Shown piece by piece: positions 16,292-55,446 of a DNA stretch of 64,000 nt (its first letter is position 1; each line of letters starts with the position of its first letter). The position numbers were made by a program, and so were the translations under genes. The notes below the pieces were generated by a model. It saw only the letters and a list, made by a program, of their open reading frames with translations. It did no database searches and was not told where the DNA came from. Origin of the DNA: an uncultured bacterium (GTDB lineage Bacteria; Krumholzibacteriota; Krumholzibacteriia; LZORAL124-64-63); the NCBI GenBank assembly GCA_903912525.1, contig CAIWHK010000032.1, positions 110,409-174,408 of the forward strand, written 5' to 3'.

Positions 16292-18811
16292 TTGCGGCAC
16301 CCGGCGGGCTATCGGCAGACCAGGTTCGAACGGCTTTCACGCGGCGCCGCCCTCCTGCTCGCCGCCCCTCTCCTGCTCGCTCTCTCGCTACCCACCGCGT
16401 TCCACATCGTCAAGCGCGCCGAATACGGTTTTGCCGTGCTCGACATGCACGTCCTGCGCGTCGACCCCGATGGCCCGGCCGAGCGGGCCGGCATCCGCGC
16501 GAAGGACCGTCTGGTTGCCGTGAACGACCGGCCTGTGGCGCGGATGTTCGACTACTATGCGGCGACGGCCGGACATTATCGGCACGAAATGCTGACGCTC
16601 CGACTGGCGCGGGGAACGGCCGAATTCGAGGCGCATGTCGTCCCCGACACGCCCGACCAGTCCGCAATGGTCACGCAGTACACGCAGTGGATCAGCGGCC
16701 TCGCCTTTCTCCTGATCGGCTGGTGGGTACTGGCGCGCAGGGCCGATCCGGTGGCGCGCAATTTCTTCGCCATGTGCGGCATCTTCGCCTTCTTCCTCAT
16801 CGACATCCCGGAAATCGACAACAGCGTCTACGTCGTCCTGAAGTACCACGCGCGCGCGCTGCTGCAACTGCTCCTGCCGGCCTATGTGCTGCTGTTCTTC
16901 CTGCAGTTCCCCACCCCCTGGCGCGCCGGCGCCCCGCAACACGCGCGCCTGCGGTGGGTGCTGCTGCCGGCCTGGTTCCTGTTCCTGCTGGCGACGATGA
17001 ACGAAGCCCTTCGCGGCGCCCGACCGACCGGCCTGCCGGACCAGGCGATCGCGGCCGTGTCCCTCGCCTACATGCTCGCGTGCTTCATCATCGGCCTCGG
17101 GCGTTTCGCGCGCGGCACGCTGCGGCGTGATCGCCCCATCCTGCGCACGAAGATGCTCGTCATCCTCGTCGGATTGACCGCCGGCCTCGTCCCGTTCCTG
17201 GTGACGATGGCGCTCGGGACGATCGCCCCCGGCGCCAGCGTCCCCCACCTGCGCTACCTCGGGTTGTCGCTGCTCCTGGTCCCGGCCAGCTTCGCGCTGG
17301 CGATCATGCGCTACGGTGCCCTCGATACGGCGTTCGTCGTGCGCATCGGCCTGATCTACGGCACGCTCACGTCACTGATTGTCGTGGGCTACCTGTCGGT
17401 GACGGTGGCCGTCGGCACCTTCCTGTCGTCGCGCTTCGCCGTCGATTCCTCGCAGGTGCTCGTCTTCCTGGTTGCCGGCACGGCCCTGGTCATCGCCCCG
17501 CTCCGCAACCGGATCCAGGCGCTGGTCGACCGGGCCTTCTACCCGTCGCGCCGCGCCAATCGCGACGCCATCGCCCGCCTGACCGACCGCCTCACCGGGT
17601 TGATCGAGGTCCAACCGGTCCTCGATCATCTCGCGGCGTCGCTCGGCGAGCTCTTTCGCCCCCGCACGTTCGCCATCGTCCTGGCCACCCCTGGTCCGCA
17701 GCGCGGCTTTGCCGTCCGCACCTTCTGGTCACCGTCGCCGGAAACGCCCCCCGGGCCCTGGCCGGCCCTTCCGGCCGAGAACCTCCTGGCGCCGCTGCTG
17801 AACCGGGTCCGCCGCCCCGTGTTCTGCGAAGAGCTTGAGGACCAGGGACCCGAGCAGTCCGCCGATCCCGCGTGGCCCCTGCTGCACCAGCTCCAGGCCG
17901 AACTCCTGGTGCCCCTGGTCTCGGGAAACCGACTGCTGGGCTTCCTGGCCTTCGGTCCCAAGTGCGGGGGACAACTCTACGGCCAGGAGGACGTGAGCAA
18001 CCTGCAGATGCTCGCACTCCAGGCCGGCCCCGTCGTCGAGAGCCGCCAGCTCTACGAGGACCGCCTGCGGGGCAAGCGCCTGGAGACCGAACTGGCCGTC
18101 GCCCGGGGCATCCAGGCCAATCTTTTGCCTGTGGCGCCCCTGGTCCTGCCGACGTGCACCATCTGCGGGCGCAACGAACCCTGCCGCACGGTGGGCGGCG
18201 ACTACTTCGACTATTTCGCTGTCGAGAACGGAGGCGTCGCGCTGGCGATCGGCGACGTGTCGGGAAAGGGCATCCCCGCCGCGCTGATGATGAGTTCGCT
18301 CCGCGTGGCCTTCCGCCTGGCCGCCGAGGCCGCCGCCTCCCCGCGGGACGTGGTCGCGCGCATGAACCCGGTCGTCGCCTCGCTCGTGGGCCCGAGCAAC
18401 TTCATCTGCTTCTTCTACGCGGTCTGGAGCCCGACCGAAAGCCTGCTGCGCTACTGCAATGCCGGCATGGACCCGCCGGTCGTCCTGCGCCCCGGCGCGT
18501 CCCACCGGCAGTACCTGCGCAAGGGTGGCCCGGTGCTCGGGGTCGAACCGGAGTTTGCCTATCGCGAGGGCGCCATCTCCCTGGCCCCCGGCGACCGCAT
18601 CTTTCTCTATACCGACGGCCTGACCGAACAACGCGATCCCCAGGGGCGTTTCTTTGATGCCGAGCGCCTGATCGAGCTGGTCGAGCAGGATGCCACCCGC
18701 CCACCTGAGGCCATCCTCGAGCACGTCTTTGCCACTGTGAATGCTTTCGGCCACCAACACCGCTCGGACGATCAGACCGCCATGTTGATGCAAATCCACA
18801 AGTTGGACTGA
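16292..18811 (+). CDS. Membrane sensor phosphatase: PDZ + multi-TM + GAF-like + SpoIIE/RsbU PP2C
   Basis: PDZ (VDPDGPAERAGIRAKDRLVAVN), about 10 TM helices, ELAVARGIQANLLP, VGGDYFD, IGDVSGKG, NAGMDPP, YTDGLTE, DDQT. Confidence 0.9.
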   Translation: MRHPAGYRQTRFERLSRGAALLLAAPLLLALSLPTAFHIVKRAEYGFAVLDMHVLRVDPDGPAERAGIRAKDRLVAVNDRPVARMFDYYAATAGHYRHEMLTLRLARGTAEFEAHVVPDTPDQSAMVTQYTQWISGLAFLLIGWWVLARRADPVARNFFAMCGIFAFFLIDIPEIDNSVYVVLKYHARALLQLLLPAYVLLFFLQFPTPWRAGAPQHARLRWVLLPAWFLFLLATMNEALRGARPTGLPDQAIAAVSLAYMLACFIIGLGRFARGTLRRDRPILRTKMLVILVGLTAGLVPFLVTMALGTIAPGASVPHLRYLGLSLLLVPASFALAIMRYGALDTAFVVRIGLIYGTLTSLIVVGYLSVTVAVGTFLSSRFAVDSSQVLVFLVAGTALVIAPLRNRIQALVDRAFYPSRRANRDAIARLTDRLTGLIEVQPVLDHLAASLGELFRPRTFAIVLATPGPQRGFAVRTFWSPSPETPPGPWPALPAENLLAPLLNRVRRPVFCEELEDQGPEQSADPAWPLLHQLQAELLVPLVSGNRLLGFLAFGPKCGGQLYGQEDVSNLQMLALQAGPVVESRQLYEDRLRGKRLETELAVARGIQANLLPVAPLVLPTCTICGRNEPCRTVGGDYFDYFAVENGGVALAIGDVSGKGIPAALMMSSLRVAFRLAAEAAASPRDVVARMNPVVASLVGPSNFICFFYAVWSPTESLLRYCNAGMDPPVVLRPGASHRQYLRKGGPVLGVEPEFAYREGAISLAPGDRIFLYTDGLTEQRDPQGRFFDAERLIELVEQDATRPPEAILEHVFATVNAFGHQHRSDDQTAMLMQIHKLD

Positions 18812-18893
18812 TTTCCTCCATCAGGCCCTGAATTTGCTGAAGGTTTCCCGGACAGGGTGGCGCCGCCTGCCGCCCGCCGGCCAATGGAAAACC

Positions 18894-18920
18894 TCAAGGA
18901 ACGCAACGGCCGACCGATCC
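18894..18920 (+). promoter_or_regulatory. Possible sigma-28-like promoter upstream of the small ORF
   Basis: TCAA-N15-ACCGATCC versus consensus TAAA-N15-GCCGATAA. Confidence 0.35.
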
Positions 18921-18970
18921 CTAAGCAAGGAACTCCTGAATCCTCGAACTGGAGAAAGGGGGGGATCGAG

Positions 18971-19036
18971 ATGGAAAGTGGGATGATCCTGTTGACGTTG
19001 TCGTTGCTCGATCTCTTTTGGTGGTTGAGAAAATGA
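18971..19036 (+). CDS. Small hydrophobic 21-aa ORF MESGMILLTLSLLDLFWWLRK (leader peptide or small membrane protein)
   Basis: Purine-rich RBS region GGAGAAAGGGGGGG, ATG..TGA, tandem Trp codons at 19019-19024, strong terminator just downstream. Confidence 0.55.
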   Translation: MESGMILLTLSLLDLFWWLRK

Positions 19037-19050
19037 CCAGCGCTCGCTAG

Positions 19051-19093
19051 CCCCTGGCTGCTGGCACCATGCCACAGCCAGGGGTATTTTTTT
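19051..19093 (+). terminator. Intrinsic terminator overlapped by an alternative hairpin (19037-19064)
   Basis: CCCCTGGCTG/CAGCCAGGGG 10-bp stem plus inner TGGCA/TGCCA, then TATTTTTTT. Confidence 0.9.
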
Positions 19094-19131
19094 GCCCGGT
19101 CGCGAACACGATCGCACCCGGACTTCCGCAT

Positions 19132-19668
19132 TCACGGCCGCAGCAGACCCTCGACAGCATGCTGATAGGTCGCCAGCGACTGCGCACCGATCCAACGCCG
19201 ACGAATGACGCCATCCGGACCCACCAGGAATGTCGTGGGCAACTGGTCGATGTTCCCGAAGGCGGGCGTCAGGTCGGGCTGGGCACCCTGCATCGCGACC
19301 GGAATCGTCAACGCCTGCCGCGCCACCACCGACCGCACCTTCCCCTCCCCCTCCTGCCCGATCGCCACGGCGATGACCAGGAGGCTGTCCGGATGGGCCC
19401 GACTGAGTTCCTGGAGATGGGGTAACGCCCGCAGGCAGGGACCGCACCAGGTATCCCAGAAATCGACGATGACGACCTTGCCGCGCTGCGCACCCAGATC
19501 CACGGACTTGCCCTCCAGGGTCGTGAGCGTCAGGGCCGGCACAACCGTGCCCTCGCGGCCTCCGCTCACCTTCGCCGCCGATGCGGCACGGCAGCCCGCC
19601 AGTGCCAGGGCGGCCACGACCATTGCGGCCACGGCCGGTCGCCACTGGGACCTCGAGATCTGAGCCAT
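19132..19668 (-). CDS. TlpA/ResA-family thiol-disulfide oxidoreductase lipoprotein
   Basis: Lipobox LALAGC; GKVVIVDFWDTWCGPC; LPTTFLV. Confidence 0.9.
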   Translation of the reverse strand: MAQISRSQWRPAVAAMVVAALALAGCRAASAAKVSGGREGTVVPALTLTTLEGKSVDLGAQRGKVVIVDFWDTWCGPCLRALPHLQELSRAHPDSLLVIAVAIGQEGEGKVRSVVARQALTIPVAMQGAQPDLTPAFGNIDQLPTTFLVGPDGVIRRRWIGAQSLATYQHAVEGLLRP

Positions 19669-19832
19669 GCGCGTCTGCCTTTCTTCATGAGCCGGGCGGC
19701 AGGCGCCGCCCAGACCCACGGTTAGTCCCGGAACCAATCCTTGTCCATCGGGCTATATCGCTTATTCTAGGCGCGCCCCGGCCCCAAGCGCCACCAGTGA
19801 GTTCCGAACAGCGTTCCAGGAAGAGGCTCCTG

Positions 19833-53961: not shown

Positions 53962-55446
53962 CTAGAACTGCTTGCGCATACGCGCACTCAAAATCCCCAT
54001 CTGTTCCCTGTATTTGGCCACCGTACGCCGGGCAATTTTCAGGCCCCCTTCCTGGAGCATATCGACAATTTTCTTGTCCGACAAAGGCCGGGCCGTGTTT
54101 TCGGCGTCAATGATCTCCCGGATCATGATCTTGACGGCCTTGGCCGACACGTCCTCGCCGGTGTCGGAGTCCAGGCCGGCGCTGAAGAAGAACTTCAGGG
54201 GGAACACCCCGCGCGGGGTCTGCACGTATTTCTGACGTGTCACGCGCGAGACGGTCGACTCGTGCATCCCAATCGTCGAGGCGACCTGCTGCAGGGTGAG
54301 CGGGCGCAGCGCGATGGCGCCCTTCTCGAAGAACTCGCGCTGCTCACCGACGATCGCCTCCATCACCTTGATCATGGTGCGGCGGCGCTGCTCGATGGTC
54401 TTGATGACCCACTCCGCATGACGCTTGCGTTCGTCGATGAACTTGACCGCATCCTCGCTCGTCTGGACGGTGCCCTCGTAGGCCTGGCTCACCCGCAACC
54501 GCGGGATATTGCCGTCATTCAGGTAGACGGCGTACTCGAGCCCGTCCTCGTCGACCTTCACGACCTCCAGGTCGGGCACGATGGCGCGCGCGCCCACGGT
54601 GTTCAGCGAGAGACCCGGTCGCGGATCGAGTTCACCGATGCGCTGGGCGACTTCCTGCACCTGCTTGACCGTCAGGTGCAGGTCGCGGGCGATGTCGTTG
54701 AACTTGTGGTTCTTCAGGGCCTCGAAATGTTCCTTGACCACCGTGGCCTCGTCCGATTCGGCCAACCCGTGGGCCTCCAGCTGCAGCAGGAGGCATTCCT
54801 GGAGGCTTCGCGCAGCGACGCCGGGCGGGTCGAACCCCTGCACCACGCGGAGCACCGCCTCGACGGCCGCCTGGGAGACGTCGAAGTAGGTCGCGATCTC
54901 CTCCACGCTGCAGCCGAGGAGCCCGTCCTCGTTGAGACAGCCGATGATGTACTCGCCGATCGAGCGCTCGATTCCATCGGGCACGGCCAGGTGCAGCTGG
55001 TCGGTCAGGTCCTCCTGGCCGCTCGGCACGTATTTCTGGGGACGTTCAAGTTCGTCCTCTTCGTCCCAGCCCTGGTCCAGCGACACGGACTGGAAGCCGT
55101 CGTCGAAACTGTCGGCCCAGTCGCGCCGCTCTTCCATGTTGTCACCCACGCCGTCGTCGGCGCCGTCGCGCAGATCCTCGTCCGCATCCGGCCCTTGCTC
55201 GGAATCCGGATCACGCTCGTCGGCCGCCGCGCCGTCCGGGCTGTCCTCGGACTGGTCGCTGCCGTCCGGTTCCTCGTCCGCTTCGATCTCTTCGAGCAGC
55301 GGATTGCCCTGGAGTTCCAAGCGCAGGATCTGCTCGAGCTCCAGCGTCGGCACCTGCAGCAGCTTGAGGGCCTGTTGCAGGCGCTGGGTCATGACCAGCT
55401 GCTGGCGCAGCTGCATGCTCTGTCGCAATCCGAGATTCGGTGCCAT
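53962..55446 (-). CDS. rpoN: RNA polymerase sigma-54 factor
   Basis: LQQALKLLQ, NPLLE, DPPGVAARSLQECLLLQL, HESTVSR, PLSD, RpoN box ARRTVAKYRE. Confidence 0.98.
   Translation of the reverse strand: MAPNLGLRQSMQLRQQLVMTQRLQQALKLLQVPTLELEQILRLELQGNPLLEEIEADEEPDGSDQSEDSPDGAAADERDPDSEQGPDADEDLRDGADDGVGDNMEERRDWADSFDDGFQSVSLDQGWDEEDELERPQKYVPSGQEDLTDQLHLAVPDGIERSIGEYIIGCLNEDGLLGCSVEEIATYFDVSQAAVEAVLRVVQGFDPPGVAARSLQECLLLQLEAHGLAESDEATVVKEHFEALKNHKFNDIARDLHLTVKQVQEVAQRIGELDPRPGLSLNTVGARAIVPDLEVVKVDEDGLEYAVYLNDGNIPRLRVSQAYEGTVQTSEDAVKFIDERKRHAEWVIKTIEQRRRTMIKVMEAIVGEQREFFEKGAIALRPLTLQQVASTIGMHESTVSRVTRQKYVQTPRGVFPLKFFFSAGLDSDTGEDVSAKAVKIMIREIIDAENTARPLSDKKIVDMLQEGGLKIARRTVAKYREQMGILSARMRKQF

Follow-up and report, generated by a model that had tools for sequence, protein, structure and literature searches.

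A conserved micropeptide gene linked to a PDZ-7TM-GAF-PP2C phosphatase gene throughout the Krumholzibacteriota

The stretch of DNA analysed here, referred to as the window, comprises 64,000 nucleotides (nt) of contig CAIWHK010000032.1 from an uncultured bacterium of the Krumholzibacteriota, and the focus of this report is a micropeptide gene of 21 codons within it, which specifies the product MESGMILLTLSLLDLFWWLRK. The open reading frame (ORF) is housed in a gap of 320 nt between two convergent genes, those of a membrane phosphatase of the PP2C type and of a TlpA/ResA-like redoxin, and is accompanied there by a putative promoter, a predicted leader and an intrinsic terminator. The elements of the locus are as follows.

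16292 to 18811, plus strand: PDZ-7TM-GAF-PP2C membrane phosphatase gene with a predicted TTG start, assigned with Pfam.
18823 to 18838, plus strand: putative sigma-54-type promoter AGGCCCTGAATTTGCT, with GG at 18824-25 (-24) and GC at 18836-37 (-12), consensus score 20/24.
18849 to 18970, plus strand: predicted 5' leader of about 122 nt, whose start near 18849 is placed from the -12 element.
18893 to 18918, plus strand: leader motifs CTCAAG (18893-98) and CCGAT (18914-18), 15 nt apart, with 16 nt to an invariant CGA.
18955 to 18964, plus strand: Shine-Dalgarno region AAAGGGGGGG, 6 nt before the ATG, of which GAAAGGGGG is kept across the family.
18971 to 19036, plus strand: micropeptide ORF, from the ORF list, the alignment of relatives and motif scans.
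19033 to 19050, plus strand: mini-frame ATG ACC AGC GCT CGC TAG, whose ATG shares TG with the TGA stop of the ORF.
19051 to 19093, plus strand: intrinsic terminator with a stem 19051-19060/19075-19084 and an inner stem GGCA/TGCC, then TATTTTTTT.
19132 to 19737, minus strand: TlpA/ResA-like redoxin gene (Pfam), convergent and outside the unit, which it adjoins in a single family (f1) only.

What is conserved at this locus is the peptide and not an RNA switch, and the ORF is a real gene whose role is unassigned. It extends from an ATG at 18971 to a TGA at 19034-19036, and its product is built of a variable hydrophobic N-terminal part followed by a nearly invariant I/L-D-L-F-W-W-L-R-K end. The original prediction, made from the letters of the window, had pointed out this ORF, its seven leucines with four of them written TTG (the others are one CTG and two CTC), the tandem TGG at 19019-19024 and the convergent tlpA gene on its 3' side, all of which are borne out by direct reading of the sequence. 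No co-directional gene follows in the window, because the right-hand TlpA/ResA-like gene is convergent, and the gap with the micropeptide is single-copy in its own genome. The ORF contains several codons that are rare in five neighbouring genes, where AGA is absent from the 271 Arg codons and AAA, TTG and TTT make up 5%, 6% and 9% of the codons for Lys, Leu and Phe, respectively, and the G+C content at third codon positions is 0.71 in the ORF, as against 0.88 in these genes.

A DNA search of 40 relatives found the gap in 7 of the 7 other genomes of the same genus, and matches at E <= 2e-5 came from six genomes of other genera, in every case across the 3' half of the ORF and the hairpin behind it. 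The search returned 19 loci, of which 15 hold the ORF (L015 and L017-L019 were dropped as short chance matches), and in all 15 of these the PP2C orthologue precedes the ORF and a convergent TlpA-like gene follows it. In the alignment of these relatives the ribosome-binding site (RBS) GAAAGGGGG and the start are kept, the length varies from 19 to 23 codons, and a variable, hydrophobic first half leads to the end (I/L)IDLFWWLR(K/R) directly before the stop, while the arms of the downstream hairpin change together.

Beyond these close relatives, the peptide was followed through a set of 208 genomes of the phylum, sorted into families f1 to f9; the genomes are related by descent, and counts overstate the number of independent events. 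A strict scan for D-[LI]-[FL]-W-W-L-R-[KR]-TGA, written as a degenerate DNA pattern, found the motif exactly once per genome in 86 of the 208 genomes, and the reversed pattern, used as a control, gave 0 matches. Apart from the genome of the window, the matches fall into families f1 (73/90), f6 (5/10) and f9 (7/13), and the strict motif was not found in families f2, f3, f4, f5, f7 and f8. Among the matches Leu is written TTG, CTG, TTA, CTT, CTC or CTA and Arg AGA, AGG, CGC, CGT or CGA with the residues unchanged, and this variety of synonymous codons at constant residues therefore indicates selection on the protein.

A second count was made independently of the motif, in 32 genomes that lack the strict form (six of f4, six of f3, one of f7, one of f8, four of f9, four of f6 and ten of f1), for which DNA was taken only from the stop of the PP2C orthologue onwards. 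A variant ORF was present about 60-330 nt after this stop in 32 of the 32 genomes; 27 were retrieved by an automatic filter, four by reading the frames, and one by a looser scan that leaves its start uncertain. Representative variant peptides are the following.

Family f4: MRIELVDLLWWLRKR
Family f3: MFAWCMIIDLLWWLR
Family f9: MFWIYLIDLLWWLRR
Family f6: MTSQDFLGLVSLLADIFWWLRR
Family f8: MLPIAIFLIIDIFWWMR

With the variants included, the constant part reads [ILV]-D-[LI]-[FLWY]-W-[WF]-[LIM]-[RK], followed by zero to two more basic residues, and the ORFs range from 13 to 28 codons with an RBS in front. Because a variant ORF occurs in every one of the 32 strict-negative genomes, the micropeptide gene is phylum-wide, and the ORF is under selection at the level of the protein. 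An excess of synonymous-site conservation in the last eight codons was also considered and rejected: between genera, their synonymous identity does not exceed the codon identity of about 50% at conserved PP2C residues, so that a constraint at the RNA level is not needed.

Gene callers pass over genes as short as 13-23 codons, although the micropeptide is among the best-conserved sequences of the phylum. The exact peptide MESGMILLTLSLLDLFWWLRK was not found in a collection of 15 billion proteins, and searches of Pfam, NCBIfam and Rfam gave no family match, the sole hit of the peptide being a sub-threshold one to MYXO-CTERM (13.1 bits against a cut-off of 15.85). A text search of the literature for the six-letter ends of the motif matched only unrelated papers on fish transglutaminase, and small proteins were not the subject of those portions of the literature on the phylum that were surveyed.

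That the unit is a non-coding small RNA, or the mere 3' end of the PP2C transcript in which the ORF is incidental, is highly improbable in the light of these results. The region does fold better than its shuffled versions (z -3.36 and z -2.51 in two computations) and the leader keeps the sequences of two motifs, CTCAAG and CCGAT; however, the locus changes as a protein-coding gene does, by synonymous substitution and by whole-codon changes of length with start, stop and RBS kept, a promoter motif lies between the PP2C stop and the ORF, and Rfam at permissive E-values gave five weak matches, all far below the gathering threshold, the best with 20.4 bits against 36.2. Two of these sub-threshold matches, to the narK RNA (15.4 bits) and the sul1 RNA (20.4 bits), fall at 18824-18886 on the plus strand, where they overlie the sigma-54-type element and the G+C-rich hairpin that opens the predicted leader, and they are probably meaningless. 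A dual function, coding and RNA, may nevertheless be combined in the unit.

The putative promoter starts 12 nt after the stop codon of the PP2C gene. In order to score such elements, a GG-N10-GC core was required in the 200-nt regions preceding 112 distinct units, with the reverse complement as a control: scores of at least 19/24 were reached by 78 of the 112 units and by 4 of the 112 controls, and scores of at least 18/24 by 108 and 14, respectively, while a stricter regular expression matched 48 of 119. Relative to the start codon, the element lies at about -85 to -105 in families f3, f4, f6, f9 and part of f1, and at about -145 to -150 in the clade of the window. As judged by comparison of sequences, the -24/-12 motif is thus conserved both in sequence and in position. 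It resembles known sigma-54 promoters in the spacing of GG and GC by 10 nt, in a context like TGGCAC-N5-TTGC and in its fixed distance from the gene, and the factors required for such promoters are encoded as well: rpoN is encoded on the minus strand of the window (about 53968-54444; Sigma54_DBD, 210 bits), about 35 kb from the unit, and the genome has about 17 strong matches to sigma-54 activator domains, none of them beside the unit. A binding site for such an activator would fall within the 3' part of the PP2C coding sequence. Against its own reading, the original prediction had set the case of a terminator that serves only the upstream PP2C gene; this is not what was found, because the sigma-54-type promoter separates the PP2C stop from the ORF.

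Together, promoter and terminator predict a transcript of about 245 nt, from about 18849 to 19093. In one RNA library, contigs identical to the window cover 18861-19035, 19037-19274 and 19246-19448, in data that carry neither strand nor level. In the RNA run X17 neither dsbD nor the body of the PP2C gene is covered by a contig, a gap that carries no weight, and runs X18-X20 contain mainly tlpA and short mismatched pieces, likely from relatives.

Within the leader, an alignment of 46 units from the clade of the window shows the positions A14, G16, C33, G34 and A35 to be invariant. The motifs CTCAAG and CCGAT are nearly invariant and pair with nothing conserved; in another clade, CTCAAG stands directly after the -12 GC of the sigma-54 element and is possibly the relic of a duplicate promoter. 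As a promoter of a wider regulon, CTCAAG-N-CCGAT was rejected, since it has 14 matches in the genome of the window against 6 in the control and sits inside the leader in this clade. A further element of the leader, CGATCCC at 18915-18921, had been proposed to pair with GGGATCG at 18962-18968, beside the RBS, in the manner of type I toxin mRNAs. The positions are correct and the RBS-masking stem forms in the window's own fold, but covariation fails to support it: across the 46 units 75.6% of the cells are paired against 74.9% in shuffled alignments, compensatory change is confined to one of seven pairs (one cell), 184 of 500 shuffles show as many or more such changes, and the CGA of the 5' arm is invariant with or without its pairing partner.

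The three overlapping stems at the end of the ORF had led the original prediction to the geometry of a ribosome-mediated trp attenuator, and hence to a relic attenuator or an amino-acid-sensing antisense switch. The stems do exist thermodynamically (-3.2 kcal/mol for stem 1:2, -11.8 for stem 2:3 and -29.0 for the terminator), and in the window sequence 2:3 excludes 3:4; their fate among relatives was counted on 36 f1 units with the spacing of the window. The intrinsic terminator is real, with a G+C-rich hairpin, a U-tract and a stem kept by compensatory change: its main helix is paired in 93.9% of the cells, seven of the ten pairs show compensatory changes, and none of 500 shuffles reaches the observed covariation. 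Stem 1:2 is paired in 91.9% of the cells and leaves no room for covariation, since the 5' arm is the invariant coding sequence of W-W-L. The antiterminator 2:3, in contrast, shows no covariation in this set, with 63.1% of the cells paired against 61.7% in shuffled alignments and 55.4% in its outer helix. Thus, of the two things that the original prediction proposed to look for in relatives, the ORF and its peptide proved to be conserved and the alternative stem did not.

Leader peptides of ribosome-mediated attenuators and arrest peptides, such as trpL and TnaC, share with the micropeptide a short ORF with Trp codons, a terminator hairpin close behind it and conserved C-terminal residues. In those systems, unlike here, an alternative hairpin and a regulated downstream gene are conserved, and here the peptide is kept where the hairpin is not. 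A classical attenuator or antisense switch sensing Trp or Leu can be drawn on the window sequence, with its three stems and tandem Trp codons; but with 2:3 enforced, positions 19022-19093 reach -20.9 kcal/mol as compared with -36.2 for the terminator state, about 15 kcal/mol apart, tlpA is the convergent neighbour in f1 only, and the Trp-Trp and Leu residues belong to the invariant motif, being fixed also in lineages and phages with other contexts. Since 2:3 lacks covariation and the downstream gene differs and is mostly convergent, both the attenuator and the antisense reading lack their defining parts: there is no kept antiterminator, there are no controlled co-directional genes downstream, and the supposed control codons are not free to vary. 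The unit is not a transcription attenuator, and we regard a sensing switch of either kind as barely credible. The attenuator-like picture given by a single sequence thus dissolves on comparison with its relatives.

At the stop codon of the ORF, the overlap ATGA opens a mini-frame of five codons, which stops with TAG at 19048-50 and ends at the foot of the terminator. Among the 84 units with an overlapping ATG or GTG, a stop (TAG, TGA or TAA) occurs within 35 nt in that frame in 69, compared with 24 and 23 in the other two frames; among the 28 units without an overlapping start, every frame has such a stop in six units. A kept stop in the overlapping frame would be expected if ribosomes reinitiate there, and the contrast of 69/84 with 6/28 therefore supports coding, but it is not a clean test because the two groups are largely different clades. 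In the simplest reading, ribosomes that end the micropeptide would sometimes restart and selection would bar them from running on to the end of the transcript, and a regulatory role of the mini-frame is possible but unsupported.

Such a role is part of the view that the micropeptide is a cis-acting leader or arrest peptide, which would act in the ribosomal tunnel at the rare AGA-AAA-TGA end while reinitiation at ATGA modulates read-through of the terminator. The conserved part is indeed made up of the last 8-9 residues, forms down to 13-15 amino acids (aa) occur, TGA is the stop in 92 of the 112 units, the codons at the end of the ORF are rare, and in most f1 units the mini-frame ends 0-3 nt before the hairpin. 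Against this stand the lack of a conserved downstream gene to regulate, a varying distance from WW to the stop (one to three basic residues follow WWL), the absence of the mini-frame from families f3, f4 and f9 as well as from g34, a genus of f1, and the persistent hydrophobicity of the N-terminal part, for which a peptide acting in the tunnel has no need. In addition, the main ORF stops 17 nt before the hairpin, outside the footprint of a terminating ribosome. Copies of the ORF on phages, described below, keep the peptide but often lack the hairpin, which speaks against a cis-acting micropeptide; we consider an arrest peptide very unlikely.

The partner of the ORF throughout the phylum is the gene on its left. 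The micropeptide gene is tied to the 3' end of the PDZ-7TM-GAF-PP2C gene in all families in which it was followed, and the linkage holds in distant families at 27-30% PP2C identity. The phosphatase carries a PDZ domain at residues 52-115, a multi-pass transmembrane (TM) region, a GAF domain at 442-582 and a SpoIIE/PP2C domain at 646-835, and this PDZ-TM-GAF-SpoIIE build is kept in families f3, f4, f6 and f9, with a match to HisKA_7TM in one of them. An orthologue of its N-terminal 430 aa, which contain the PDZ/TM part, is found in 190 of the 208 genomes and was not found in any of the seven genomes of family f2. The PDZ domain lies between the first two membrane spans and, given the basic N-terminus and the two flanking spans, probably faces outwards into the periplasm. 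Residue G46, part of a YGF stretch by the beginning of this domain, is kept in all 21 orthologues compared, and we take it to belong to the carboxylate-binding loop. In most f1 genomes two matches to the PDZ/TM region were observed, and hence a paralogue of the phosphatase is present, along with only one micropeptide motif per genome.

Unlike the phosphatase on the left, the downstream neighbours vary, including genes for an amine oxidase, an aminotransferase, ArsP, Band 7, FG-GAP, TrpA, YtxH and a peptidase C25, which are mostly convergent, and the TlpA-like gene was not found beside the unit in f6, f9 and Eisenbacteria. Two further candidate links between peptide and phosphatase were rejected. 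A fusion of the ORF with PP2C, suggested by an open frame of 841 codons at two loci, is an alternative frame in G+C-rich DNA and not the PP2C frame, and the likeness of the peptide to the second membrane span of the phosphatase (consensus GLAFLL.GW.VL.RR) is too short and of low complexity.

The unit also extends beyond the phylum. A scan with one genome per species gave at least 120 loci, with about 87 true units and about 33 chance-like ones among those listed, so that the spread beyond the phylum is a lower estimate. Eisenbacteria carry true units, and among the matches listed one of these stands directly after a GAF-SpoIIE gene. In a scan of viral contigs, 15 loci were found, of which 11 are short ORFs (13-21 codons) behind strong RBSs, with peptides such as MEKFWLAIAVIDLFWWLRK, MHYEIFLGLALIDLFWWLRK, MSFIFLLDLLWWLRR and MKSINLIDLFWWLRR; the other four are ORFs of 34-78 codons with a signal-peptide-like N-terminal part and the same octapeptide end. 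Five inspected viral records are tailed phages with terminase, tail, primase and RusA genes. The phage copies sit among accessory genes before the packaging module. A tblastn search with the peptide, a short query run with the low-complexity filter on, gave no match in 50,697 phage records and 72,556 plasmids, a negative of little weight. The micropeptide is thus common to the phylum, to phages and, as shown below, to very small genomes.

We lean towards a trans-acting, membrane-targeted micropeptide that works in the pathway of the neighbouring phosphatase, as its modulator, ligand or output. The sigma-54-type promoter just 3' of the PP2C stop would drive the transcript of about 245 nt, made up of a long leader, a strong RBS, the 21-codon ORF and the intrinsic terminator, and the product would be a trans-acting peptide composed of the variable hydrophobic N-terminal part and the octapeptide D-[LI]-[FL]-W-W-L-[RK]-[KR]. 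A hydrophobic run followed by WW and one to three basic residues has the form of a membrane-interface anchor, so the peptide may well go to the cytoplasmic membrane, with Trp-Trp and the basic end at the interface. The octapeptide is near letter-perfect across phyla and phages, which points to a specific partner, and it could accordingly serve as a specific binding motif. The peptide might then modulate the phosphatase from within the membrane, bind to its periplasmic PDZ domain as a ligand or constitute a tightly switched output of the pathway.

Small membrane proteins that modulate sensor proteins are known, such as MgrB and SafA, which act on PhoQ. The micropeptide resembles these in being a very small hydrophobic protein with a separately regulated gene of its own that is genetically tied to a membrane signalling enzyme, and its linkage with the sensor gene is conserved, the exceptions being genomes of about 1 Mb and phages. 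It differs from them in that it is at most half their size (13-23 aa), that its putative partner is a PDZ-7TM-GAF-PP2C phosphatase and not a histidine kinase, that its promoter appears to be of the sigma-54 type, and that it occurs also on phages and in genomes in which the partner was not detected. If it acts in this way, a putative sigma-54-controlled micropeptide is added to the short list of such regulators, and a handle is gained on a sensor phosphatase that is uncharacterised and nearly universal in an uncultured phylum.

Several observations weigh against a role in the pathway of the phosphatase. The -24 box of the window reads GGCCC and not GGCAC, which departs from the sigma-54 consensus, and the RNA contigs may partly stem from the convergent tlpA transcript. 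The shortest forms have 13-15 aa (e.g. MRIELVDLLWWLRKR), and their 8-14 hydrophobic residues are few for a membrane span. On phages, the ORF lies among accessory or late-junction genes, namely those for RusA, an HNH endonuclease or endonuclease VII, a sigma factor, a calcineurin-like phosphoesterase and terminase. Among the matches listed, moreover, three genomes of about 1 Mb with 41-49% G+C carry the peptide at the following loci.

L249: 5913 to 6179
L250: 5601 to 5893
L251: 4893 to 4919

In each of these three genomes, whose completeness is not established, the SpoIIE domain has 0 matches and rpoN was not found. When compared with the receiver domain, the gene upstream of the peptide lies above the Pfam cut-off in one genome, below it in one and gives no match in one. 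Two of the three genomes have two tandem copies with strong RBSs. The peptides closely resemble f1 forms, which suggests transfer of the micropeptide into these genomes, and it is found there right after a small receiver-like gene, near genes for a ZIP transporter and Fur. Because copies are present on phages and in genomes in which no PP2C was detected, the peptide can work without the PP2C phosphatase.

It is in this context that an autonomous, type I toxin-like membrane peptide has to be weighed, which upon induction would perturb or depolarise the membrane or block a conserved membrane protein, and which a silent sigma-54 promoter and a structured leader would keep off in place of an antisense RNA, the adjacency to the phosphatase being regulatory or historical. 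A small membrane protein or type I toxin was among the options that the original prediction had left open, and it survives, now with conservation at the protein level. In the sections of a review that deal with membrane type I toxins, these are described as having a mostly cytosolic C-terminus, where positive residues are important for anchoring in the membrane; one toxin is still toxic at 15 residues with at least 10 hydrophobic ones, and another needs its two C-terminal basic residues (PMC8309996). The build of the micropeptide, to judge by its sequence a small hydrophobic peptide with a charged tail, fits these accounts, and with the Ldr, AapA1 and Ibs classes as covered there it shares a tiny hydrophobic helix, a cationic C-terminal pair, tandem copies (in two small genomes), carriage on phages or prophages and a long leader (PMC8309996). 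The leader pairs with the RBS in the fold of the window, the ORF contains the rare codons AGA, AAA and TTG, and some genomes with the peptide have no detected PP2C.

Other features set the micropeptide apart from these classes. Neither an antisense RNA gene nor a promoter on the minus strand was seen (a sigma-70 scan of 18500-19500 gave 0 sites, and no conserved element was noticed on the minus strand in the alignments of relatives), and the RBS-masking stem lacks covariation. Type I toxins are typically patchy in their distribution and multi-copy, whereas the micropeptide occurs once per genome and, throughout the phylum, at the same syntenic position, and its sequence is far more strongly conserved. 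The constancy of the octapeptide suggests a specific protein partner over general membrane damage, and no toxin model in Pfam or NCBIfam was matched at E <= 1. An autonomous toxin is therefore a doubtful alternative to a role in the phosphatase pathway, albeit the one with the most in its favour among those considered here.

A more specific version of the peptide as a ligand, which we consider unlikely, is that DLFWWLRK is an exported peptide signal, switched by sigma-54, and that the 7TM-GAF-PP2C phosphatase encoded beside it acts as the receptor through its periplasmic PDZ domain. Tailed phages and symbiont-sized genomes would then have copied the signal in order to eavesdrop on the pathway or to manipulate it. 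Hints in this direction are a signal-peptide-like N-terminal extension in some forms from phage contigs and Eisenbacteria and an Ala-rich stretch directly before the Asp in one phage-contig form, together with the placement of the PDZ domain between the first two spans and the invariance of G46. Streptococcal pheromones derive from unmodified precursors of about 15-25 aa whose active part is the C-terminal 7-9 residues, and after import they bind cytosolic RRNPP receptors. They include short hydrophobic peptides such as ComS/XIP with a double-tryptophan motif (e.g. PMC5131902) and SHP. Like ComS/XIP and SHP, the micropeptide would be a short precursor with a conserved C-terminal part that includes Trp-Trp, and its gene stands beside a sensor or regulator gene. 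The adjoining gene here, however, specifies a PDZ-TM-GAF-PP2C membrane phosphatase with a probably outward PDZ domain and not an RRNPP-type receptor, the peptide end is basic, and the streptococcal systems belong to Gram-positive cocci. The phylum of the window, in contrast, is presumably a member of the FCB group, and if the exported-signal reading were true, it would provide a peptide-based signalling cassette in a presumed diderm phylum. The eight-residue motif is open to synthesis and direct testing for PDZ binding, membrane activity and toxicity.

Some minor observations concern the surroundings of the unit. Farther upstream of the PP2C gene lie valS, a helix-turn-helix gene and uvrB on the opposite strand, and a DsbD gene comes after the TlpA/ResA-like gene. 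On the minus strand, a weak terminator-like hairpin at 19035-19052 is followed by ATTTTCTC and overlaps the end of the ORF; it might end the tlpA transcript, and its T-run corresponds, on the opposite strand, to the conserved AGA-AAA codons. The sequence (T)GCCC directly after the T-run of the plus-strand terminator (19094-19098) is kept in most f1 units, while the flanks beyond it are not. Finally, many public contigs that carry the locus together with the PP2C orthologue are labelled 'uncultured Fibrobacteraceae', 'Latescibacterota', 'Gemmatimonas' or 'Chitinivibrionia', which conflicts with their computed kinship.

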